From the NCBI GenBank assembly GCA_018509705.1, contig GCA_018509705.1_3630.1: a stretch of DNA of 64,000 nt, one strand, 5' to 3'. The notes beneath the pieces are model-generated. The model saw nothing but the letters and a program-made list of their open reading frames with translations. It had not been told where the DNA came from and did no database searches. Every line of letters begins with the position of its first letter. Within the stretch, counting starts at the first letter, position 1. Below, piece after piece: positions 33,913 to 57,983 of this stretch. The stretch is from a phage. Made by a program: the position numbers and the translations under genes.

Positions 33913-33989
33913 TGGTCTCCACGGAGTGATTCGAACACTCGACCTCCTGATCCCAAATCAGGCGCTCTACCAAGCTGAGCTACGCGGAG
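33913..33989 (-). tRNA. tRNA-Pro (anticodon UGG)
   Basis: Hand-folded cloverleaf: acceptor CTCCGCG, D-loop TAGCTCAG, anticodon loop TTTGGGA, T-loop GGTTCGAATC, encoded CCA. Confidence 0.8.
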
Positions 33990-34000
33990 TATTTATTATT

Positions 34001-34075
34001 TGGTGGCCCTGGGTGGAATTGAACCACCGTCTGGCGATTATGAGTCGCTTGCTTGAACCTTCCAGCTACAGGGCC
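34001..34075 (-). tRNA. tRNA with CAU anticodon (Met, or Ile2 lysidine-type)
   Basis: Acceptor GGCCCTG/CAGGGCC, anticodon arm GCGA-CTCATAA-TCGC, T-loop TTCAATT, encoded CCA. Confidence 0.75.
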
Positions 34076-34076
34076 A

Positions 34077-34152
34077 TGGTGCTGATGGCAGGACTTGAAC
34101 CTGCAACCTATTGATTACAAATCAATTGCACTACCAATTGTGCTACATCAGC
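34077..34152 (-). tRNA. tRNA-Thr (anticodon UGU)
   Basis: Acceptor GCTGATG/CATCAGC, D-stem GCAC/GTGC, anticodon arm ATTGA-TTTGTAA-TCAAT, T-arm GCAGG-TTCAAGT-CCTGC, CCA. Confidence 0.8.
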
Positions 34153-34157
34153 AAAAA

Positions 34158-34256
34158 GGTGCTAGGTGATGGAATCGAACCACCTATGTATTCAACGACT
34201 ACCTCGTCTATTTTCAGGATTAAAAATCCTCGCCCTTGCCAAAGGGCTTACCTAGC
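34158..34256 (-). tRNA. atypical tRNA-like gene (about 99 nt; isotype unresolved)
   Basis: Good acceptor (GCTAGGT/ACCTAGC) and T-arm (GGTGG-TTCGATT-CCATC), but about 24 extra nt between D and T arms; anticodon arm ambiguous (AGGAT-TTTTA-ATCCT or 4-bp stem with UUU). Confidence 0.3.
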
Positions 34257-34354
34257 TCAGTATGTTGACCATGTTGCTAGTCGGCGATGACGACTGTAAC
34301 ATTTGATAATCCGGTTCTGCTTCCGGCTTTCGCTTAATTACAAGGTCAACAATA

Positions 34355-34445
34355 TGGCTGAGGGTAATGGAATCGAACCATCATCAAGTCATCCTCAACG
34401 GGACGGTTTTCAAGACCGCTTGAGCACCATTGCTCCCTACCCTCA
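34355..34445 (-). tRNA. tRNA-Ser (anticodon UGA), long variable arm
   Basis: Acceptor TGAGGGT/ACCCTCA, anticodon arm GCGGT-CTTGAAA-ACCGT, long variable arm, T-loop TTCGATT, CCA. Confidence 0.7.
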
Positions 34446-34559
34446 TTTATAAACAATACTGATAATGACACTGATTTTCGAGCAGTTAGTGACTAGTATA
34501 AACGACGATAAATATCAATGCCATTATCTGTATGATTTATGCATTTAAAACTATAAATT

Positions 34560-34646
34560 TGGTGGGGAGTGGTGGAGTCGAACCACCCGAGTCGCAATGA
34601 CAATAGATTTACAGTCTACACCGCTACCCCTACGGGATAACTCCCC
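34560..34646 (-). tRNA. tRNA-Tyr (anticodon GUA), long variable arm
   Basis: Acceptor GGGGAGT/ACTCCCC, anticodon arm GTAGA-CTGTAAA-TCTAT, T-arm GGTGG-TTCGACT-CCACC, CCA. Confidence 0.7.
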
Positions 34647-34650
34647 AATT

Positions 34651-34725
34651 TGGCACCCCGTACTGGACTCGAACCAGTGTCAACGGCTTAGAAGGCCGCT
34701 GCTTTATCCACTAAGCTAACAGGGC
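34651..34725 (-). tRNA. tRNA-Arg (anticodon UCU)
   Basis: Acceptor GCCCTGT (two G-U pairs), D-stem GCTT/AAGC, anticodon arm GCGGC-CTTCTAA-GCCGT, T-arm ACTGG-TTCGAGT-CCAGT, CCA. Confidence 0.75.
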
Positions 34726-49852: not shown

Positions 49853-49860
49853 CAATTATA

Positions 49861-49890
49861 GGGAGGCTTGCGCCTCCCTTTTCCTTTTGG
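49861..49890 (+). terminator. hairpin plus T-run terminator
   Basis: gggaggcttgcgcctccc followed by ttttcctttt. Confidence 0.5.
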
Positions 49891-49897
49891 AGGCACT

Positions 49898-50704
49898 TTG
49901 AGCAAGAAAGAGTCCAACGACAAATATTACACAAACCCTGAGTATGCAGAATATCTTGTTGGTAAAGTAAAAGATAAGTATGGGAATTGTGCATACGTTG
50001 AGCCTTCTGCTGGAAGGGGTTCTTTTTCAAAACTATTTTCAGAGATACTGTCGTACGATTTAGTACCAGATCCTGAATTTGAAGGACCAACACCGTGCAT
50101 TCAGGCAAACTTCTTGGAGGTGCATCCCAAGGCAGATGTCTTCATAGGTAACCCACCATTTGGCAAGAATTCATCCTTAGCTTGCAAATTCTTTAACCAT
50201 TGTGCATCATTGCTAGAGATTGGAGGAGCTATAGCCTTCATCTTGCCACGGACATTTGAAAAAATATTTTTTGCAAACAAACTGGACATGTCGATGCATC
50301 TTGTCTACAGCGAAAGGTGCCCTAAGAACTCGTTTTTACTTAATGGCAAACCTTATGACGTGCCATGTGTTTTCCAAATTTGGGAGAAAAAGGCGTGCAA
50401 TAGGGATCCTGTAGAGGTTGGAGAGAATAAGTTATTTTCTTTTAGCACACCAGATGACTACGACTTCTGTGTAAGACGTGTTGGGTATAATGCTGGAAAA
50501 GTACTGGGGGATGATGATCCAAAATCTGAAGAATCTACATATTTCATAAAATCTTTAGTTGACGGTGTTGACAGAGTGTTTGCTGAATGCTATTCTTCTT
50601 TTCAAGAAGAAGCAGGTAAGACTGCTGGAATGAAGAGTATAGGCAAGAAAGAACTACAATACATTTTGGAGACCAGGTATGATCAAAAGCATAGATTTGA
50701 CTAA
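49898..50704 (+). CDS. DNA N6-adenine methyltransferase
   Basis: Motif I-like VEPSAGRGSF and motif IV IGNPPFG; start moved to an in-frame TTG after GGAGG because the track start lies inside the terminator hairpin. Confidence 0.55.
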   Translation: MSKKESNDKYYTNPEYAEYLVGKVKDKYGNCAYVEPSAGRGSFSKLFSEILSYDLVPDPEFEGPTPCIQANFLEVHPKADVFIGNPPFGKNSSLACKFFNHCASLLEIGGAIAFILPRTFEKIFFANKLDMSMHLVYSERCPKNSFLLNGKPYDVPCVFQIWEKKACNRDPVEVGENKLFSFSTPDDYDFCVRRVGYNAGKVLGDDDPKSEESTYFIKSLVDGVDRVFAECYSSFQEEAGKTAGMKSIGKKELQYILETRYDQKHRFD

Positions 50705-51137
50705 AGAACTTACTGATGCAAAAGCTTTTGGTGAGACAGCGGTACAAAGGGGGCAGGCGATGGGACTGGCACTACCTTTCGTCTTAAAAGAGCACTTTAC
50801 CGATTTTCAACTTATCAAGGGTGATAAGGGAATGCTTATCCTGGAGCATAAGTTGAGTAAGAAACGCTATAAAGTTGTTTTTAATTCTAAAGCTCCAACA
50901 AAACTGGGATTCAGAACTTACAATCTTAACCCATCCTACACTAAGGGTGTTGGAAGGGTAGAACAACAGCATTTCAGTGCCAGAGCTTCTTTAGCCCCTT
51001 TGATGCTAAATTTCTCAGGGGTGGCTTTAGGATACCTTGATAAGAAAAGAGTTCTTCATGTCCGTTTCACAGACTTTGTAACGCTTTTAGCTAACAACGA
51101 GGTTGATGAAAAGGGACGTGTAAAAACAAACTTCTAA
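50679..51137 (+). CDS. hypothetical protein
   Basis: ORF track. Confidence 0.3.
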   Translation: MIKSIDLTKELTDAKAFGETAVQRGQAMGLALPFVLKEHFTDFQLIKGDKGMLILEHKLSKKRYKVVFNSKAPTKLGFRTYNLNPSYTKGVGRVEQQHFSARASLAPLMLNFSGVALGYLDKKRVLHVRFTDFVTLLANNEVDEKGRVKTNF

Positions 51138-51152
51138 TAACGCATAGTATGA

Positions 51153-51356
51153 TTGGAGGCCACAATGACACTAAAGTTAACAATTCCAGACAGCTTTTCA
51201 GAAAACTTTATCCCAGAAATGATGGGTAAGATGCGATCATTGCTTGATCAGATTGAGGAAGCTGTTTGGGAAGACGATGCTGTAGTGGCTAACGAGCTGG
51301 TAGATAAGTGTAAAAGTATTATTGATGCAGTTGAAGAATACCACGGAGGTTTTTGA
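51153..51356 (+). CDS. hypothetical small protein
   Basis: ORF track. Confidence 0.25.
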   Translation: MEATMTLKLTIPDSFSENFIPEMMGKMRSLLDQIEEAVWEDDAVVANELVDKCKSIIDAVEEYHGGF

Positions 51357-51970
51357 TGGATATTATTGTTCTTAACGCCCCACCTAGCAGTGGCAAGGAT
51401 CACATTGCAGATCTCTTGTTGGAAGCTATTCCTAACTCACACCACCGTGAGGTTAAGGAAATGCTCTTCAGTGTGGCAATTAAGGCAGCTGGTGTAACCC
51501 CTCAACTCTGGAGTGCACTTTATGACCGCCACTACAAGGAAGAGCCTTGCCCTTTCTTAATGATGGACGGCAAGCATGTTTCTCCGCGAGAATGGATGAT
51601 CCATTGTAGTGAAAATCTGATTAAACCTATCTTTGGTGAAGATGCTTTCGGTAAAGCCGCAGTCGCATCTTTGAAGAAAGATTTCCCTGAAGGTAAAGGG
51701 GTTGTTGTTTACTCCGATGGTGGATTCAAAGAGGAGCTGGCATGCCTTAGTGAGTACGCATACAGCACAGGTGGAGATCTGTTGTTGTTCCGTATTCACC
51801 GTGTCGGATATGACTGGGGAAATGATTCCAGAACCTATCTAAGTCTGGAAAAGAACGGAATAAAAGGGATTGAGTTTGATGTTGTAAACCCTGAAGGTGC
51901 ACCTTGGGAATGTGCATCGGAGATTGTGTGCAAGTATATTGATGCTAAAGAGGCCCAAGAAGAATGTTAA
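51353..51970 (+). CDS. deoxynucleoside monophosphate kinase-like protein
   Basis: N-terminal IIVLNAPPSSGKDHIADLL resembles T4 gp1 dNMP kinase (LIFLSGVKRSGKDTTADFI) from memory. Confidence 0.45.
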   Translation: MMDIIVLNAPPSSGKDHIADLLLEAIPNSHHREVKEMLFSVAIKAAGVTPQLWSALYDRHYKEEPCPFLMMDGKHVSPREWMIHCSENLIKPIFGEDAFGKAAVASLKKDFPEGKGVVVYSDGGFKEELACLSEYAYSTGGDLLLFRIHRVGYDWGNDSRTYLSLEKNGIKGIEFDVVNPEGAPWECASEIVCKYIDAKEAQEEC

Positions 51971-52557
51971 TCGGAATTGATGTAGATTTGACACTGGTAG
52001 ATTCAGGAACAGCATGGTGGGAGTGGTTGGAGCGTTTGTATGGTCCAGCCAGTAAGACAGTCGCTAAACCTTCTAACGGGCTGATGTATTACGATCTGTC
52101 AAAGTATTGGCCTGATCGCCCCAAAGAAAACATCATAGGGCCTTTTGATTTCTGGAGTGACCCGTTCCTTTACGACTTTCTTAAGCCTGAAGAGGGGGCT
52201 ATTGAGGTTATGAAAGATTTGGTGGCTCGTGGTCACAAGCTTGCGTTTATCTCGGTATGCAAGAAAGGTCACCTTGCATCTAAATCAAGGTTCTTAAAGC
52301 GTTGGACCAGTGATTTTATGGATCTGGACGATCACACCCAGGGCCACGGATTCTACGCCACACATTTCAAAGGGAATGTGGCTGTAGATGTTATAATTGA
52401 CGACAGGCATGAATACCTGAACCAATTCGCTTCACGACCTGAAGTTATTAAAATCCTAAAAGATACGCCTTATGAGCAATTCGAGGAGTTAAAGGTCAGT
52501 ATTGACTATACCGCTAATAGCTGGTATAAAATAGGAAAGTTTTTAGAAGGTATTTGA
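51964..52557 (+). CDS. HAD-superfamily phosphatase (5'-deoxynucleotidase-like)
   Basis: N-terminal HAD motif I LIGIDVDLTLVD. Confidence 0.45.
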   Translation: MLIGIDVDLTLVDSGTAWWEWLERLYGPASKTVAKPSNGLMYYDLSKYWPDRPKENIIGPFDFWSDPFLYDFLKPEEGAIEVMKDLVARGHKLAFISVCKKGHLASKSRFLKRWTSDFMDLDDHTQGHGFYATHFKGNVAVDVIIDDRHEYLNQFASRPEVIKILKDTPYEQFEELKVSIDYTANSWYKIGKFLEGI

Positions 52558-52558
52558 A

Positions 52559-52759
52559 ATGGGCAGATGTTCTAAAGGTGGCGATCCTGTAGTCAGATAC
52601 GGAGACTGGCTAGAGGTATATAATCTGGAGGGAAAGCTAGTGTATGCTTCCAGGATCACCCAGGATATGTGCTCTGATATGTTTAACAGGTACCTTGCAT
52701 TTAAGGCCAACATAAACCCAGACGAAATTTCCAAAATTAAAACAAGGAGAGCTAAATAA
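52559..52759 (+). CDS. hypothetical small protein
   Basis: ORF track. Confidence 0.25.
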   Translation: MGRCSKGGDPVVRYGDWLEVYNLEGKLVYASRITQDMCSDMFNRYLAFKANINPDEISKIKTRRAK

Positions 52760-53742
52760 TGCTAAAACTGTGCACTGCAAAGATTATTGCTGACAGCATT
52801 TCCGAGAAAGGTAAGTGTATAACCACTTTTGAGCTAGAGTATCCTAGAATCATTCACTCTGAACTCATGACACACCGAGTTTTCAGCAGAAACGCCATGT
52901 CCTCTCGTGCAGTACCTGTTAACAAAATGCTGCAGCAGGTTATGGAAAATCCTGCAATGCCAGTTCGTTTTGGTGTAAACCAGCGAGGTATGGAGGATGG
53001 TGGCGATCACGATCAGAAGATCCGTGTAGAGTATACTGATCTTGAGTTCTCTCCTGAAGAGTTCTGGAAAGAAGCTGCCAAAAATGCAGCCTGGCACGCT
53101 GAGAAGTTTGCTCTTGCTGGATACCATAAGCAGGTGTGTAACCGCTTAGTAGAGCCGTTTCAGCGCATGAAAACAGTTGTAACAAGCACCGAGTGGAATA
53201 ATTTTTTCCACCTCCGTTGCTGGCACGATGCAGATCCTACGATTCAGATGTTGGCTAATTGTATGTGGGAGGCTATGACTAATAGCACTCCTGAAATCCT
53301 TAAACCTGGTCAATGGCACACCCCATATGTAGAGCACATTTATTTGGACGGTGAGTTTAACTATGCTGTACGGGATGCAGAAGGAAAGCTCTGCGTTCTC
53401 AATACTGAAGAAGCTCTATCTATTAGTGCGAGCTGTTGTGCACAAGTATCTTATCGCAATATTGACAGCACGTTTGAAAAGGCAGACAATGTGGCTAAAA
53501 AATTGATTGGTGGGGATCGTATTCATGCAAGCCCTTACGAGCACCAGGCAACACCTATGGATCACGATAACGCAATGGAACGTTTAAACTACTACCTGTC
53601 TTCATGTGAGATCACACAAGACATCAGTACTTGGCAGGAAGGTGTAACCCATCAAGACCGTGATGGTAAATTCTGGTCTGCTAACTTTTGTGGGTGGGTT
53701 CAGCACAGACAACTGCTTAATAACCACTTCGTGAAAGGTTAA
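52759..53742 (+). CDS. thyX: flavin-dependent thymidylate synthase ThyX-like
   Basis: ThyX signature region HSELMTHRVFSRNAMSSRA (HR-x7-S; first Arg of canonical RHR replaced by Thr). Confidence 0.65.
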   Translation: MLKLCTAKIIADSISEKGKCITTFELEYPRIIHSELMTHRVFSRNAMSSRAVPVNKMLQQVMENPAMPVRFGVNQRGMEDGGDHDQKIRVEYTDLEFSPEEFWKEAAKNAAWHAEKFALAGYHKQVCNRLVEPFQRMKTVVTSTEWNNFFHLRCWHDADPTIQMLANCMWEAMTNSTPEILKPGQWHTPYVEHIYLDGEFNYAVRDAEGKLCVLNTEEALSISASCCAQVSYRNIDSTFEKADNVAKKLIGGDRIHASPYEHQATPMDHDNAMERLNYYLSSCEITQDISTWQEGVTHQDRDGKFWSANFCGWVQHRQLLNNHFVKG

Positions 53743-53771
53743 TCCTATCACAGCGATAGGTAACTTTTGTG

Positions 53772-53800
53772 TTGACTAATAGTATTAGATAATCTATAAT
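53772..53800 (+). promoter_or_regulatory. strong sigma70-like promoter (TTGACT-17-TATAAT)
   Basis: gTTGACTaatagtattagataatcTATAAT about 25 nt upstream of the 53802 start. Confidence 0.6.
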
Positions 53801-53801
53801 A

Positions 53802-54302
53802 ATGGCTCACTTTGTTAGTGAGCCAGAAATGGAGACAGATATGAGTAATGTTATGATTCCTAAAAAGACATTTATTTCAGTTACTTTGGATTTCCTATCT
53901 ACCGTTCCCGGGTTTAACGTTCGCACACGAAACGGTCTCCGAGCTGCACTCTTTGCCGTAGGGTTTGATTTAAAAAGTATTGATGTTCTTCGTGGAAAAA
54001 ACGTTCGATGCAAAAATAAGCCAACACATTATCGAAAGGCAGATGTATTTGCTGGTGTTATGCGTGCAGACTTTAGATACCCGCAAATGTATAACGGTGT
54101 AGATATTTTAGATGTAGATAAAGCACCTGGTGAGGCAATGCTTGTTCAAGATCTTCCGTATGATATTCCTGTAGAGGATCGTGTTAATGTAAGAAAGTAT
54201 ACAAAACAATCTGAAAAGGCTGAAGATATTCATATTGTTGATGAACCTTTCAATTTTGAAGATCTGCATCGCCTGGAAAAATTATTCGGTATTGAAAGCT
54301 AA
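53802..54302 (+). CDS. hypothetical protein
   Basis: ORF track; strong promoter upstream. Confidence 0.35.
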   Translation: MAHFVSEPEMETDMSNVMIPKKTFISVTLDFLSTVPGFNVRTRNGLRAALFAVGFDLKSIDVLRGKNVRCKNKPTHYRKADVFAGVMRADFRYPQMYNGVDILDVDKAPGEAMLVQDLPYDIPVEDRVNVRKYTKQSEKAEDIHIVDEPFNFEDLHRLEKLFGIES

Positions 54303-54312
54303 GGTGGTGAAG

Positions 54313-54543
54313 ATGAGTCATAACTCCAAGTGGAAGGATCTTGGTTTTGCAAGTCGGGCAGAATATGTTGGTTGGCTTTGGTTCAACGGTCTGACAAACG
54401 ATATTAAAATGTATGATGATGTTTATTATGACGAGTATACAGGTAAAATTATAAATATCTCTGTAGAAGAGGATACCTTTATCCAGCAAGATACTGATAC
54501 CTGCCTTGATAAATACGTTAATGAAGTGGAGGAAGCAAATTGA
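54313..54543 (+). CDS. hypothetical protein
   Basis: Track ORF trimmed to the ATG (MSHNSKWKDL...) preceded by AAGGTGGTGAAG. Confidence 0.3.
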   Translation: MSHNSKWKDLGFASRAEYVGWLWFNGLTNDIKMYDDVYYDEYTGKIINISVEEDTFIQQDTDTCLDKYVNEVEEAN

Positions 54544-56855
54544 TCACCAAGGTAATTAAAAGTAACGGATGTGAAGTGGCATTCGATCCAGAACGTTTAA
54601 ATAAGGCAGCTATTTTCGGTGACGACGGTAACGGCAATTGGTCACATATTGCACTAGATGCATACAAACGACTGTATGATGGATGTACAACCAAAGAAGT
54701 TAACCAAGCTATCATAGACTCCTGTGTTAGCCGTAAAGACGAAGCACATTCTCGTATGGCTGGTCGTGTTCTTATTGGTCAGATTTATAAAGAGGCTTTT
54801 GGAGGGTTTACAAAGATCCCTTCCTTACCATCATTTTACAATACCATGGTTGAGAAAGGGTATTGGGAGGATATGGGTTATAGCTTTACCGAGCTAAACA
54901 CTTTAGACGCTGTTATTGACCACAGTAAAGATCTCGGTTATGGCTATGCAGTCCTTAAACAGTTTCGCGACAAATACGGGATCAAGGATACTCTTAAAGA
55001 CACCCTGTTTGAATCCCCCCAGATGATGTTTATGGGGATAGCAATGGCTGTCATGAAGAATATGCCGAAAGAACGTCGTATCAACGATGTTGTAAAATTA
55101 TACACTTATCTGTCCGACTTAAAGATCAATGCCCCGACACCGTACTTAAACGGGCTGCGCACAGGTAAGACAGGGTATGCATCTTGTTGTGTAATAAAAG
55201 CTGACGATACAGCAAAATCTATTGGTGTGGCACGTGAAGTTGCGTACACAATGACGGTTAACCAAGCAGGTATCGGCTACTACTTATCCTCAAGATCTGC
55301 AGGCGATGGTGTTCGTGGTAACACTATTAAACATATGGGTAAGATTCCATATTATCGAGGTATTGATGCTGGTGTTAAGGAGAACAGACAACAATCACGT
55401 GGCGGTTCTGCAACAGTATCATTCCTTGCACTGGACCCGCAGATTGATGAGCTAATCCGTTTGAGAAACCCTATGACTGTTGCTTCAAAAAGAATCAACA
55501 CCATGGACTACTCCATCGGTATTAATAGGTCGTTTATCAACCGTGTGGCTAAGAATTTAGATTGGATGCTTGTTTCTTATAAGCACGCTCCTCAACTGCA
55601 TGAGGGTATCTTCACCATGTCTATGGAGGAGTTTGATGCAGAGGTTGATCGTATTGCTAAAGATGACAGTATTCCTAAAACATGGATCCGAGCCAGAGAT
55701 CTTGCTGTTGAACTGATCACGCAGCGTACTGAGGTGGGAAGGCTGTATGTATACTGGACAGATGAGATGAATAGACATACACCTTTTAAAGATGTGATCT
55801 ATTCAAGTAACCTGTGTGCAGAAATAGCCCTCCCTACAAAAGGCTATTCAGATATGCGTAATATCTTCAAGTACGATGCTGATGATGGAGAGGTTGCATT
55901 GTGCTTCCTGTCATCTCTTGTAGCTGGAAGGGTTACTCCAGAGGAGTATGAGGATGTTGCATACTACACGGTGCTTATGATTGACAATGTTATGGAAATC
56001 ATGACATATCCGTATGAAAATATGGAAAGCACAGTTAAAAAACGCAGATCCATCGGGGTTGGCCTTACCAATGTTGCACATTTTATTGCCAGCCACAAGG
56101 TTACTTACGGGTCTCCTGAAAGTAAACAGCTCGTTCACGATCTTGCAGAACTTCACAGCTACAGCTTGCATAAGGCAAGTTTACGGTTGGCAAAAGAGCG
56201 TGGTGTCTGCGAGTGGATGCATAAAACAAAATATCCAGAAGGTTGGTTACCAATCGACACCTATAACAAAGAGGTCGATAGCGTGGTGAAAGATCCTTCT
56301 CTTAAGCAGGATTGGGAAGGGTTACGTAAAGAAATCATTGAAAATGGTGGGCTACGTAATAGCGTTCTTGAAGCATATATGCCTAATGAAAGCTCTTCGC
56401 TGGCAACAAACACCACTAACGGGGTCTATCCTGTCCGTGAGCACATTATCTTTAAAAAGTCGCCACAAGGGCAGGTGCTGTTTATCGTTCCTGACTATGA
56501 TGAGTTGAAAGAGTATTACACTTCGGCTTGGGACGTTGATACTAACGACATGATCGATATGTATGCTGTGATTCAAAAATTCACAGGTCAGGCAATCAGC
56601 GCGGATTTATACATAGACTACACCAAGTTGAAAGATGGTAAAATTTCAATGAAGGAGCAGCTAGGTTACCTTATCCGTGCCACTAAATTCGGGATGAAGA
56701 CATGGTATTATTTAAACTCCCGGGTTGGTGCTGGTGACTCCTTGGCAGAGGAACTTCATGCCAAGAAACAGGCTGAAGATGAAACCAGAAAGAACTATCC
56801 TTTGATTGCAGATAGTTCAGTTGAAGATCAGTATTGCGAAAGTTGTGCACTATAA
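54540..56855 (+). CDS. nrdA: ribonucleoside-diphosphate reductase large subunit (class Ia)
   Basis: 771 aa; N-terminal ATP-cone-like VIKSNGCEVAFDPERL; followed directly by the small subunit gene; TTG start overlapping the upstream stop. Confidence 0.8.
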   Translation: MITKVIKSNGCEVAFDPERLNKAAIFGDDGNGNWSHIALDAYKRLYDGCTTKEVNQAIIDSCVSRKDEAHSRMAGRVLIGQIYKEAFGGFTKIPSLPSFYNTMVEKGYWEDMGYSFTELNTLDAVIDHSKDLGYGYAVLKQFRDKYGIKDTLKDTLFESPQMMFMGIAMAVMKNMPKERRINDVVKLYTYLSDLKINAPTPYLNGLRTGKTGYASCCVIKADDTAKSIGVAREVAYTMTVNQAGIGYYLSSRSAGDGVRGNTIKHMGKIPYYRGIDAGVKENRQQSRGGSATVSFLALDPQIDELIRLRNPMTVASKRINTMDYSIGINRSFINRVAKNLDWMLVSYKHAPQLHEGIFTMSMEEFDAEVDRIAKDDSIPKTWIRARDLAVELITQRTEVGRLYVYWTDEMNRHTPFKDVIYSSNLCAEIALPTKGYSDMRNIFKYDADDGEVALCFLSSLVAGRVTPEEYEDVAYYTVLMIDNVMEIMTYPYENMESTVKKRRSIGVGLTNVAHFIASHKVTYGSPESKQLVHDLAELHSYSLHKASLRLAKERGVCEWMHKTKYPEGWLPIDTYNKEVDSVVKDPSLKQDWEGLRKEIIENGGLRNSVLEAYMPNESSSLATNTTNGVYPVREHIIFKKSPQGQVLFIVPDYDELKEYYTSAWDVDTNDMIDMYAVIQKFTGQAISADLYIDYTKLKDGKISMKEQLGYLIRATKFGMKTWYYLNSRVGAGDSLAEELHAKKQAEDETRKNYPLIADSSVEDQYCESCAL

Positions 56856-56894: not shown

Positions 56895-57983
56895 ATGGCT
56901 GTATTTAATGCTGAGAACACCGCTCATAAAACTGGTGACTATCCGCTGTTTCTAGGACAGCAAATGGGTATGTACGACTCTATCAACAAAAAATATCCAC
57001 AACTGTTTGAACTGTACAAAAAACAAAAAGAACAAGATTGGGCAGAGGATGAAGTGGATTTGTCGCAATCTATTTCAGATTTTGTAACATGCTCAAAGTC
57101 AACTTATGACGTGATGGTGCAGACCTTGATGTGGCAATGGGAGGCTGATAGCGTTGCGGCAAGATCGATCATCTGCCTCTTTTCACCATTCATCACTAAT
57201 AGTGAGCTTTTCACCCTATTGATGAAACAGTCGGAGATTGAAGTTCTTCACGCACTAACTTACTCAGAGATTGTTAGACAATGCCTCCCCAATGCCCGTG
57301 AGATTATAGAAGAGATCCAGGAAAACCAAAACGTTCTGAGCAGATCCGGCGTTATTGTCAAATACATGCAGGAACTCGAGGTTATTGGTGCAAAATACCG
57401 ACTGGATCCTTCTAGTGTTGAAGAAGATGTTGTGCGGAAATGCATTCTTAGAGCGCTTTTTGCACTTTTGGCTCTGGAAAGTATTGAGTTTATTGCAAGT
57501 TTTGCATGCACTTTCGCAGTGGCTGAACAGGGTATCTTTGTTCAGGTGGCGCAGCTTGTTCAAAAAATCATGCTTGACGAAATGCTACATTCGAAAGGTG
57601 ATTTTGCCATCATTGATATCCTGCTTAACGATCCCGCATGGGAGAAAAGCTTCCTTGAGATAAAGGGAGAGTTAAAAGAGATTCTTGATGAAGTACGAAC
57701 CAAGGAGTACGGTTGGAGCGACTATATTTTCAGCGAAGGAAGAGCGATTATAGGTCTTAACTCACCGTTGCTTAAAGAATGGGTTGACTATAACTGTTCA
57801 CCGATTTATGATTACTACGACATCGACAAAGACTTTGTGCCGCCAACAAAGGACCCGCTACCGTTTATGCAGGTGTGGATGAAACCTTCATTGCAACAGA
57901 CGGCGAACCAAGAAATGTCGAACACTGACTACCGCGTCAACACAACTGTTAACGACGCTGAAGAAGAAATTTGGGAGTTTTAA
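56895..57983 (+). CDS. nrdB: ribonucleoside-diphosphate reductase small subunit
   Basis: 362-aa ORF immediately after nrdA with acidic C-terminal tail (EEEIWEF) typical of R2; family assigned by size and context. Confidence 0.75.
   Translation: MAVFNAENTAHKTGDYPLFLGQQMGMYDSINKKYPQLFELYKKQKEQDWAEDEVDLSQSISDFVTCSKSTYDVMVQTLMWQWEADSVAARSIICLFSPFITNSELFTLLMKQSEIEVLHALTYSEIVRQCLPNAREIIEEIQENQNVLSRSGVIVKYMQELEVIGAKYRLDPSSVEEDVVRKCILRALFALLALESIEFIASFACTFAVAEQGIFVQVAQLVQKIMLDEMLHSKGDFAIIDILLNDPAWEKSFLEIKGELKEILDEVRTKEYGWSDYIFSEGRAIIGLNSPLLKEWVDYNCSPIYDYYDIDKDFVPPTKDPLPFMQVWMKPSLQQTANQEMSNTDYRVNTTVNDAEEEIWEF

Follow-up and report, generated by a model that had tools for sequence, protein, structure and literature searches.

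Examination of positions 49,898 to 53,742 of the window (the whole stretch of phage DNA analysed, 64,000 nucleotides long; GenBank assembly GCA_018509705.1, contig GCA_018509705.1_3630.1) leads us to propose that this block is very probably a conserved operon for deoxynucleotide supply in an rV5-like (Vequintavirus) myovirus, whose packaged DNA would be canonical apart from site-specific methylation. The block is read on the forward strand and encodes a methyltransferase, a dNMP kinase, a HAD phosphatase and a ThyX-like protein, with three small unknown ORFs interspersed between them. It lies directly upstream of the phage genes for the aerobic and anaerobic ribonucleotide reductases and glutaredoxin. 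In a GenBank search the stretch matched 123 phage records at 90-99% identity, almost all of them labelled Escherichia Vequintavirus, and the identity is 96-98% for over 100 phages, including the BASEL phage Bas51 (WalterGehring, MZ501111); judged by its sequence, the source of the window is an rV5-like Vequintavirus phage. The block is an ordinary one that is already annotated in these relatives. The Bas51 genes bas51_0194-0200 follow the same order as here (methyltransferase, two hypothetical genes, kinase, HAD phosphatase, a further hypothetical gene and ThyX, then NrdAB), and the annotated context in that phage runs through ligase, 5'-exonuclease, EndoVII, DnaQ-like exonuclease, methyltransferase, kinase, HAD phosphatase, ThyX, NrdAB, Grx and NrdDG. 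Differences from Bas51 and the rV5 relatives are small only, with the methyltransferase ORF stopping 12 nt sooner here (268 aa versus 272 aa). A thymidylate synthase (rV5 gp106) and ribonucleotide reductases are likewise already listed in the rV5 genome paper (PMC3606486).

At its 5' boundary, past the upstream DnaQ-like exonuclease gene, the block is set off by an intrinsic terminator (49860..49889) in which a strong hairpin at 49860-49879, AGGGAGGC-TTGC-GCCTCCCT, is followed by TTTCCTTTT. The methyltransferase gene (49898..50704; 268 aa) starts at a TTG codon at 49898, preceded by a GGAGG Shine-Dalgarno sequence at 49889-49893, and its 3' end is overlapped by 26 nt by a 152-aa ORF of unassigned function (50679..51137; phrog_9938). 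Some GenBank records label this ORF a methyltransferase, a label backed by none of the profiles searched (Pfam, PHROG, NCBIfam and PADLOC). A 63-aa acidic ORF, which the PHROG search assigned to phrog_7393 (51165..51356), is followed by the genes for the kinase (51356..51970; 204 aa), the HAD phosphatase (51964..52557; 197 aa), a 66-aa protein (52559..52759; phrog_4903) and the 'long' ThyX-family flavin-dependent thymidylate synthase homologue (52759..53742; 327 aa). These last four are tightly coupled, each abutting or overlapping the next: the start of the HAD gene overlaps the kinase stop, and the stop of the 66-aa ORF overlaps the ThyX start. The 3' boundary is formed by a weak terminator-like hairpin and then a sigma-70-like promoter, TTGACT-17-TATAAT (11/12), at 53744..53800, beyond which come two small ORFs, nrdA (54540-56855) and nrdB (56895-57983).

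In the operon that we propose, the ThyX-family enzyme would convert dUMP to dTMP using FAD, NADPH and methylene-tetrahydrofolate, and the gp1-type kinase would phosphorylate dTMP, along with dNMPs from degraded host DNA, to dNDPs, whose conversion to dNTPs would be completed by the host NDK. The NT5C-type phosphatase may trim the dUMP/dTMP (deoxypyrimidine monophosphate) pool, forming a substrate cycle with the kinase. The enzyme families in this scheme rest on homology and the flux is inferred from them, the substrate preferences suggested for the kinase and the phosphatase being taken from their family names only. Ordinary dTMP synthesis was the first alternative of the original prediction, and this thymidine half of it is supported.

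The kinase contains the P-loop APPSSGKD and matches PHROG 139 ('deoxynucleoside monophosphate kinase') with an E-value of 2.4e-44 over profile positions 82-265. T4 gp1 matches the same profile over positions 83-261 (E 1.8e-65), and the two proteins have in common this PHROG, the span of the profile that they cover and an N-terminal P-loop of similar form (xxSGKD, then a hydrophobic/acidic helix). However, a pairwise BLASTP comparison between them is not significant (E 0.7; 204 aa here versus 241 aa), and no PDB sequence matched the kinase at E up to 10; hence the earlier description of the protein as T4 gp1-like holds at the level of the profile only and does not extend to direct similarity. 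Kinases of this type are present in 1529 phage records, and the closest relatives of the one studied here come from rV5-like, Klebsiella, Aeromonas and K1-type phages, all of which, unlike T4, are without hmC.

The phosphatase scores 26.9 bits against the Pfam NT5C model (PF06941), just above the gathering cutoff of 24.8, and belongs to PHROG 420, which carries no functional label. Its translation reads D6-V-D8-L-T10 at motif I (DxDxT) and I-I-D146-D147-R at motif IV (IIDDR). Both the PF06941 match and these intact HAD motifs are shared with the NT5C 5'(3')-deoxyribonucleotidases, including human cdN and mdN and phage or prophage homologues, and the HAD phosphatase foreseen from the sequence is thereby confirmed as a family member.

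The ThyX-like protein matches the Pfam Thy1 model (PF02511) with 39.0 bits (cutoff 24.8; E 9.3e-10), its residues 22-178 covering profile positions 59-190 only, and it falls below the cutoff of the NCBIfam thyX equivalog TIGR02170 (39.3 versus 87.9 bits). The defining ThyX motif is R-H-R-X7-S (Myllykallio 2002, as cited in PMC2826268); the phage protein departs from it in reading T38-H39-R40-X7-S48, so that the T-H-R variant that had been pointed out is real, with a threonine in place of the first arginine. This threonine is invariant in 16 relatives and occupies the position in 128 of 134 family members (96%) whose pairwise identities are about 50% or less, arginine being found in 2 and lysine in 3 of them; it therefore reflects neither chance nor a sequencing error. 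The T-H-R family spans at least 1036 phage records, among them ICP1 and PAK_P1-like, N4-like and phiCbK-like phages, and about 5000 protein clusters. T-H-R is what members of this very large, phage-specific ThyX subfamily normally carry, and not a lineage-specific change marking a functional switch.

In the T. maritima enzyme the first arginine of the motif, R78, forms a hydrogen bond with dUMP and stabilises the flavin in its anionic reduced state (PMC3498832, PMC11940539). Alignment with hhalign and HMMER indicates that, besides the replacement of R78 by T, the phage protein has S for R74, A for Y91 and T for R165. The same alignment places R80, S88, R90, R147 and R174 of T. maritima at R40, S48, R50, R129 and R153, and H79, N85, N169, H53 and E58 at H39, N45, N148, H256 and E261; these mapped dUMP and flavin ligand residues are each 83-100% conserved in the subfamily. 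Inteins in metagenomic homologues are placed exactly at the ligand motifs, the kind of position to be expected if these are strongly constrained motifs of an active site. The family also has invariant residues peculiar to itself, namely G77-M78, K124, H187-P189 and R317.

Comparison with canonical ThyX proteins (T. maritima TM0449, PDB 1O26; PBCV-1 A674R; M. tuberculosis Rv2754c) shows a common fold and H-R-X7-S-x-R core, with equivalents of R147, R174, N169 and H53 kept in the phage protein, which differs in being about 100 residues longer, in the T for the first Arg of RHR, and in its order. Residues 20-180 are the counterpart of the canonical core (59-200 in T. maritima), and residues about 210-265 that of the N-terminal segment of the canonical enzyme (9-60 in T. 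maritima), whose H53 is H256 here. The two proteins are not collinear: the helices that are N-terminal in canonical ThyX have moved, together with the GHxxPxEH histidine motif, to residues about 215-262, in the C-terminal half. In the HMMER profile alignment, pieces 218-260, 23-52 and 135-178 fall on T. maritima 20-60, 61-90 and 156-199, respectively (native residues), and hhalign recovers the same two non-collinear pieces; a literature search found no paper describing this order in the T-H-R family. Further additions in the phage protein are a beta-rich stretch inserted at 64-98 and, at the C-terminus, a Q-x-R helix. A search with the single sequence returned no PDB match; the family profile matches T. 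maritima ThyX in PDB (6.7e-7). Foldseek with an AF2 model (pLDDT 93.8, pTM 0.91) yielded ThyX structures for all of the top 50 PDB matches, with E-values down to 3e-6 and target-normalised TM scores of 0.43-0.58 over about 160-220 columns. The protein as modelled has the ThyX fold.

These features could also be read as those of a genuine flavoenzyme whose mechanism or substrate differs, acting on dCMP or dUTP/dUDP, drawing on another reductant, or having an oligomeric active site altered by the extra C-terminal half-domain; such an enzyme may still feed canonical dTTP synthesis. In keeping with this are the replacements of R78, R74, Y91 and R165, the invariants of the family's own, the non-collinear order and, C-terminally, the second 'Q-x-R' helix, which is degenerate. 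Nevertheless, we consider it quite unlikely: all of the ligands for uracil, phosphate and flavin (R80, S88, R90, R147, R174, H79, N85, N169 and H53) are kept, which speaks for a substrate and a cofactor no different from those of canonical ThyX, and the genome context calls for no other product. A literature search found no published enzymology for any member of the T-H-R subfamily.

The original prediction further held that the same enzyme classes recur in phages that make modified bases. Carried through to base replacement, this would mean that the T-H-R ThyX forms a non-canonical pyrimidine nucleotide such as 5-hydroxymethyl-dUMP through release of the exocyclic-methylene intermediate to water, that the kinase phosphorylates this product and the NT5C-like phosphatase destroys dTMP, and that the thymidine of the virion is modified. 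The classes present in the block (dTMP phosphatase, broad dNMP kinase and C5-transferase) do fit the way in which the SPO1 and PBS-type pathways work, and some phage pyrimidine-modification pathways induce a dTMP phosphatase. The hypermodification pathways of T4 (hmC), SPO1 (hmU) and ViI, M6 and PhiW-14 (hypermodified T) likewise include a broad-specificity dNMP kinase and a C5 one-carbon transferase whose substrate is a dNMP. In addition, the protein has a threonine in place of the arginine with which canonical ThyX stabilises its reduced flavin, it scores below the thyX equivalog cutoff, and the three genes (ThyX, kinase and phosphatase) are translationally coupled.

However, the T4, SPO1, ViI, M6 and PhiW-14 pathways have ThyA-family hydroxymethylases (PMC8989533), a dCTPase or dUTPase, DNA-acting kinases/transferases or glycosyltransferases, and restriction-resistant DNA, none of which is seen here, and hypermodification of thymidine, in the pathways known, begins with a dUMP hydroxymethylase of the ThyA family and not with ThyX (PMC8989533). 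Searches with Pfam, PHROG, NCBIfam and PADLOC found no dedicated base-modifying enzyme in the block, the sole C5-transferase homologue being that of the ThyX family. In the annotation of the close relative Bas51 (98% identical), in which many ORFs are hypothetical, there is no hydroxymethylase, dUTPase/dCTPase/dTTPase, dCMP deaminase or post-replicative modifier. The one exception in that annotation is a putative fucosyltransferase, which is unrelated. The Vequintavirinae are "exceptionally susceptible" to six restriction-modification systems of types I, II and III (PMC8594841) and show the behaviour of unmodified phages when faced with Druantia III and ARMADA II (PMC13463889), and BglII, SspI and BamHI cut the DNA of Pectobacterium phage CB7, a member of another Vequintavirinae genus, Certrevirus (PMC7344957). 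Given that the rV5-like group is so restriction-sensitive, ordinary thymidine is most likely, and not an exotic base. A literature search found no direct nucleoside analysis or nucleoside mass-spectrometry data for rV5-like virion DNA. Many restriction enzymes still cut hmU DNA, and restriction sensitivity is therefore not a strict exclusion of a simple substitution such as 5-hmU. The enzyme classes themselves are widespread in phages not known for modified DNA (1529 records for the kinase and 1036 for the ThyX type, the latter including long-studied phages without reported modification), and hundreds of such phage genomes have been sequenced routinely. Together with T-H-R being the family norm, these observations do not support the gene combination as a pointer to modified bases, and we regard base replacement as very improbable.

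The site-specific methylation allowed for in the supply operon would come from the methyltransferase, whose motif I reads VEPSAGRGSF and motif IV NPPF (residues 85-88). Among 120 homologues the EPSAGxGxF and subsequent GNPPFG motifs, in gamma-class order, are each at least 90% conserved. The protein matches the PADLOC Type II MTase (MTase_II) model PDLC03255 over its full length (E 7.5e-34), one of a set of REBASE-derived models for Type II DNA methyltransferases, as well as PHROG 5172/799; Pfam returned Eco57I and MTS matches only, both sub-threshold, and NCBIfam no match. Profile searches with Pfam, PHROG and PADLOC found no nuclease or defence match among its neighbours, and since no adjacent nuclease partner is recognised the enzyme can be classed as an orphan type II-like amino-methyltransferase, in agreement with what had been predicted from the NPPF motif. 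Two bacterial homologues of the enzyme are followed by small ORFs, which show no homology to the 152-aa ORF of the block. We propose that the methyltransferase is one of several orphan DNA methyltransferases in these phages, most likely producing m6A at a short motif. The anti-restriction role suggested for such methylation finds little support, in that the phages are restricted by all the RM classes tested despite the four methyltransferases annotated in Bas51.

A non-protective methyltransferase might instead act on RNA or protein, or on phage DNA for replication, packaging or the timing of transcription. NPPF/NPPY motifs are shared by rRNA methyltransferases and by methyltransferases of protein glutamine; among the homologues, some bear the label 'predicted RNA methylase' and one has a score against the Pfam model for rRNA adenine dimethylase; and the phages show no protection from six RM systems. 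Against this, there is the full-length match to the REBASE-derived DNA methyltransferase models, and one bacterial homologue adjoins a type I-like methylase/specificity gene pair; moreover, failure against six particular systems is uninformative on other recognition sites. A non-protective role thus appears to us rather unlikely.

We accordingly favor deoxynucleotide supply as the function of the block. A reading of wider reach would make the T-H-R 'long' ThyX a distinct flavin-dependent pyrimidine C5-transferase, perhaps with another product or substrate, such as 5-hm-dUMP or methylated dCMP. We hold this to be highly unlikely; if it were true, many 'ordinary' phages would carry an unnoticed route of modification at the nucleotide level.

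Examination of the region at 49898-53742 reveals seven tightly packed ORFs on the plus strand. The four genes on which the original prediction was built are all present, namely those for a methyltransferase (49898-50704, 268 aa), a dNMP kinase (51356-51970, 204 aa), a HAD phosphatase (51964-52557, 197 aa) and a ThyX-like protein (52759-53742, 327 aa). Interspersed between them are three ORFs with no assigned function (50679-51137, 152 aa; 51165-51356, 63 aa; 52559-52759, 66 aa). The genes for the kinase, the HAD phosphatase, the 66-aa ORF and ThyX run into one another or sit end to end, a layout suggestive of translational coupling. The methyltransferase start is borne out by a GGAGG Shine-Dalgarno sequence preceding the TTG at 49898; the mechanically listed TTG at 49868 was rejected because it falls within the hairpin (49860-49879) of a strong bidirectional terminator (49860-49889) lying just upstream of this gene. 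The 3' end of the block is marked by a terminator-like site and a sigma-70-like promoter (11/12) at 53744-53800. This promoter ends 2 bases ahead of the annotated ATG of a downstream 166-aa ORF (53802-54302), suggesting that the true start of the latter is probably one of the downstream Met codons; its PHROG match begins at residue 14. Further 3' of the block, nrdA and nrdB lie beyond two small ORFs, and in an annotated relative they are followed by glutaredoxin and nrdD/nrdG.

A megablast search with the window segment 49800-53800 recovered 123 phage records, whose identity to it ranges over 90-99%. With few exceptions these are Escherichia Vequintavirus (rV5-like) phages, with the same gene order and annotation for the block. 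The best matches include Gotham, Phage 203/206, PMBT16 and the BASEL phage WalterGehring/Bas51 (MZ501111; 98% identity). Annotations of the region already exist in more than 100 GenBank genomes, and thymidylate synthase and the RNRs were listed in the rV5 genome paper (PMC3606486). Elsewhere in the window, the structural module occupies 1-34000 on the minus strand, and a minus-strand cluster of seven tRNA genes at 33913-34725 comprises genes for Pro, Met/Ile-CAT, Thr, Ser, Tyr and Arg; the remaining gene, at 34158-34256, is 99 nt long, and ARAGORN assigns it a four-base anticodon (atcc). At the corresponding place the relative has an annotated 97-nt tRNA-Lys, whereas the tRNA-Ser of the window is without annotation there. 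We also observed about 20-39 records labeled "Campylobacter phage", with C. jejuni given as host, that match sequences of E. coli rV5-like phages or other coliphages at 90-98% identity; they are unannotated partial genomes, among them MG065652, MG065659 and MG065669 (hits H21, H22 and H35). These records probably derive from mixed or mislabeled samples rather than from true Campylobacter phages.

The kinase matches PHROG 139 (2.4e-44), and T4 gp1 falls into this PHROG too, covering the same stretch of the profile; direct BLASTP between the two proteins is insignificant (E 0.7). Homologues of the kinase are present in 1529 phage records, and many of these are from small sipho- and podoviruses in which DNA modification is not known. 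The HAD phosphatase scores just over the threshold of the Pfam NT5C model and retains intact DxDxT and DD motifs. Single-sequence PDB searches with all four named proteins returned nothing useful. Most likely, the block is a dNTP-supply operon beside the RNR genes. With the enzyme families assigned by homology, we infer a scheme in which ThyX would convert dUMP to dTMP, the kinase would phosphorylate dTMP, together with dNMPs recovered from host DNA, to the dNDP level, and the NT5C-like phosphatase would balance the deoxypyrimidine monophosphate pool; the methyltransferase would deposit site-specific m6A.

Across 120 homologues of the methyltransferase, of 250-290 aa, its motifs I (EPSAGRGSF) and IV (GNPPFG) both show conservation of 90% or more. 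The protein is below threshold in Pfam and NCBIfam, and is matched over its full length by the REBASE-derived Type II methyltransferase models of PADLOC (7.5e-34). As no endonuclease is adjacent, it is an orphan. Its ORF is 12 nt shorter at the 3' end (50693-50704) than those of Bas51, nom and APCEc02 (268 versus 272 aa), the difference being confined to the extreme C-terminus. The 152-aa ORF overlaps this end, and the two might constitute a compact restriction-modification (R-M) pair or a split methyltransferase. We reject both readings, given that the homologues are complete at 250-290 aa and that the 152-aa ORF matches no methyltransferase, nuclease or defence model; nor is it homologous to the small ORFs that lie downstream of the methyltransferase homologues in two bacteria (the best match having E 0.002 over 37 aa). 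Some GenBank/RefSeq records carry the label "putative DNA N6-adenine methyltransferase" for the 152-aa ORF and "thymidylate synthase" for the 166-aa one. Neither ORF matches a model of either enzyme in Pfam, PHROGs or NCBIfam, nor any PADLOC model; these labels look like propagated mis-annotations. Palindrome statistics for the whole window indicate avoidance of some GC-rich palindromes (TGGCCA, CGATCG, GGCGCC, GCTAGC, CCGCGG and GTCGAC are absent, with 2-7 expected) and depletion of CTAG, GTAC and CGCG; GATC is not avoided (335 observed versus 343 expected), and these statistics contain no pointer to the methyltransferase target. The relative MZ501111 encodes three further methyltransferases, two putative N6A and one Dcm-like C5-cytosine (bas51_0070, bas51_0074 and bas51_0176, which lie at the window's edge or beyond it). 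Accordingly, the window methyltransferase is one of four, yet this phage group is still highly sensitive to R-M systems.

This sensitivity bears directly on the original prediction that the cluster is capable of nucleotide modification. The rV5-like phages already rank among the coliphages whose restriction sensitivity is best documented. The BASEL study (PMC8594841) covered six R-M systems, two each of types I, II and III, and found the Vequintavirinae to be exceptionally sensitive to them. Druantia III and ARMADA II also target these phages, and in all likelihood recognize phage DNA that carries no modification, according to the authors of that study (PMC13463889). Common restriction enzymes digest the DNA of Pectobacterium phage CB7, which belongs to another Vequintavirinae genus, Certrevirus (PMC7344957). 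Further, the first step of known thymidine hypermodification is carried out by ThyA-family dUMP hydroxymethylases (PMC8989533). The 140-kb genome of the relative, in which many ORFs are hypothetical, has no annotated dUTPase, dCTPase, dCMP deaminase, hydroxymethylase or DNA-level modifier. A simple substitution such as hmU would formally be compatible with restriction sensitivity, and we found no nucleoside mass-spectrometry or methylome data on Vequintavirus in the literature searched. Together, the restriction sensitivity, the recruitment of ThyA-family enzymes in known pathways and the lack of an annotated modifier in the relative leave the modification reading without support, and we conclude with moderate to high confidence that the cluster does not make modified bases.

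The ThyX-like protein is matched by Pfam Thy1 (9.3e-10) only over residues 22-178, against profile positions 59-190, and scores 39 bits with the NCBIfam thyX equivalog, below its cutoff of 87.9. It displays T38-H39-R40-X7-S48 in place of the canonical R-H-R-X7-S. This threonine is invariant in 16 relatives 56-83% identical to the window protein and is present in 128 of 134 representatives that are at most about 50% identical to each other; as judged from these alignments, T-H-R is a subfamily-wide feature and not a private change. At E-values up to 1e-3 the T-H-R family comprises 5015 representative clusters, with 1036 phage records spanning the Vequintavirinae, phAPEC8/phi92-like phages, Vibrio phage ICP1, Pseudomonas PAK_P1/PaoP5-like phages, N4-like PhAPEC5/7, Caulobacter phiCbK-like phages, Flavobacterium phages and others; it is the commonest phage form of ThyX. 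Alignment to Thermotoga maritima ThyX indicates that the dUMP ligands R80, S88, R90, R147 and R174 and the flavin/folate residues H79, N85, N169, H53 and E58 are kept, and that four residues (R74, R78, Y91 and R165) are changed; the family has new invariant residues of its own (G77-M78, K124, H187-P189 and R317). The R78 of canonical ThyX forms a hydrogen bond to dUMP and is directed at the N1/C2=O of the reduced flavin (PMC3498832, PMC11940539). Given this role, its family-wide loss poses a real mechanistic question, though as a property of the whole subfamily it is no marker peculiar to this phage.

The order of the conserved elements is also altered. With the T. maritima sequence checked against PDB 1KQ4 before alignment to the family profile, residues 10-200 of the ThyX-like protein correspond to T. 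maritima 49-214 (E 3.5e-5) and, in a separate alignment, residues 210-278 correspond to 9-81 (E 1.8e-4). The same non-collinear pieces were found independently in PDB ThyX chains using HMMER with a 128-sequence profile (6.7e-7); a 16-sequence profile gave no PDB match. Thus, the canonical N-terminal segment lies in the C-terminal half here. It is made up of two helices, one of them the "AARvSF" helix, and of the GHxxPFEH motif with His53; the counterparts are S223-CCAQVSYR and H256-ASPYEH. The W-x-Q-x-R317-Q helix at the terminus looks like a degenerate second RHR helix. We read this architecture as a putative partial duplication or permutation; no description of a permuted or T-H-R ThyX was found in the literature searched. 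An AF2 model built from 16 sequences was poor (pLDDT 68), and one from 128 sequences was confident (pLDDT 93.8, pTM 0.91), with only ThyX proteins as structural neighbors. Homologues of 520-680 aa might have been tandem duplications that explain the permutation, but are instead single units carrying inteins of about 300-340 aa (metagenomic sequences P0126, P0134, P0138, P0151, P0154, P0182, P0212, P0213, P0223 and P0254). Their junctions, of the form Cys...(S/H)GN↓C/S and reading ...H↓C....SGN↓C/S, define four sites, each lying inside a conserved motif: ahead of E35, following R40 of T-H-R, following LRxH156 and inside H256-ASPFEH. These positions fit a constrained active site formed by these motifs.

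As a pointer to modified DNA the cluster therefore fails, which saves effort in that direction, and the rearranged T-H-R ThyX subfamily is the sole loose thread worth an experiment. It should interest enzymologists as a ThyX that, besides being rearranged, is without the arginine that the canonical enzyme uses for dUMP binding and stabilization of the reduced flavin; determining its activity would show either that hundreds of database annotations are correct or that the activity is a new one.
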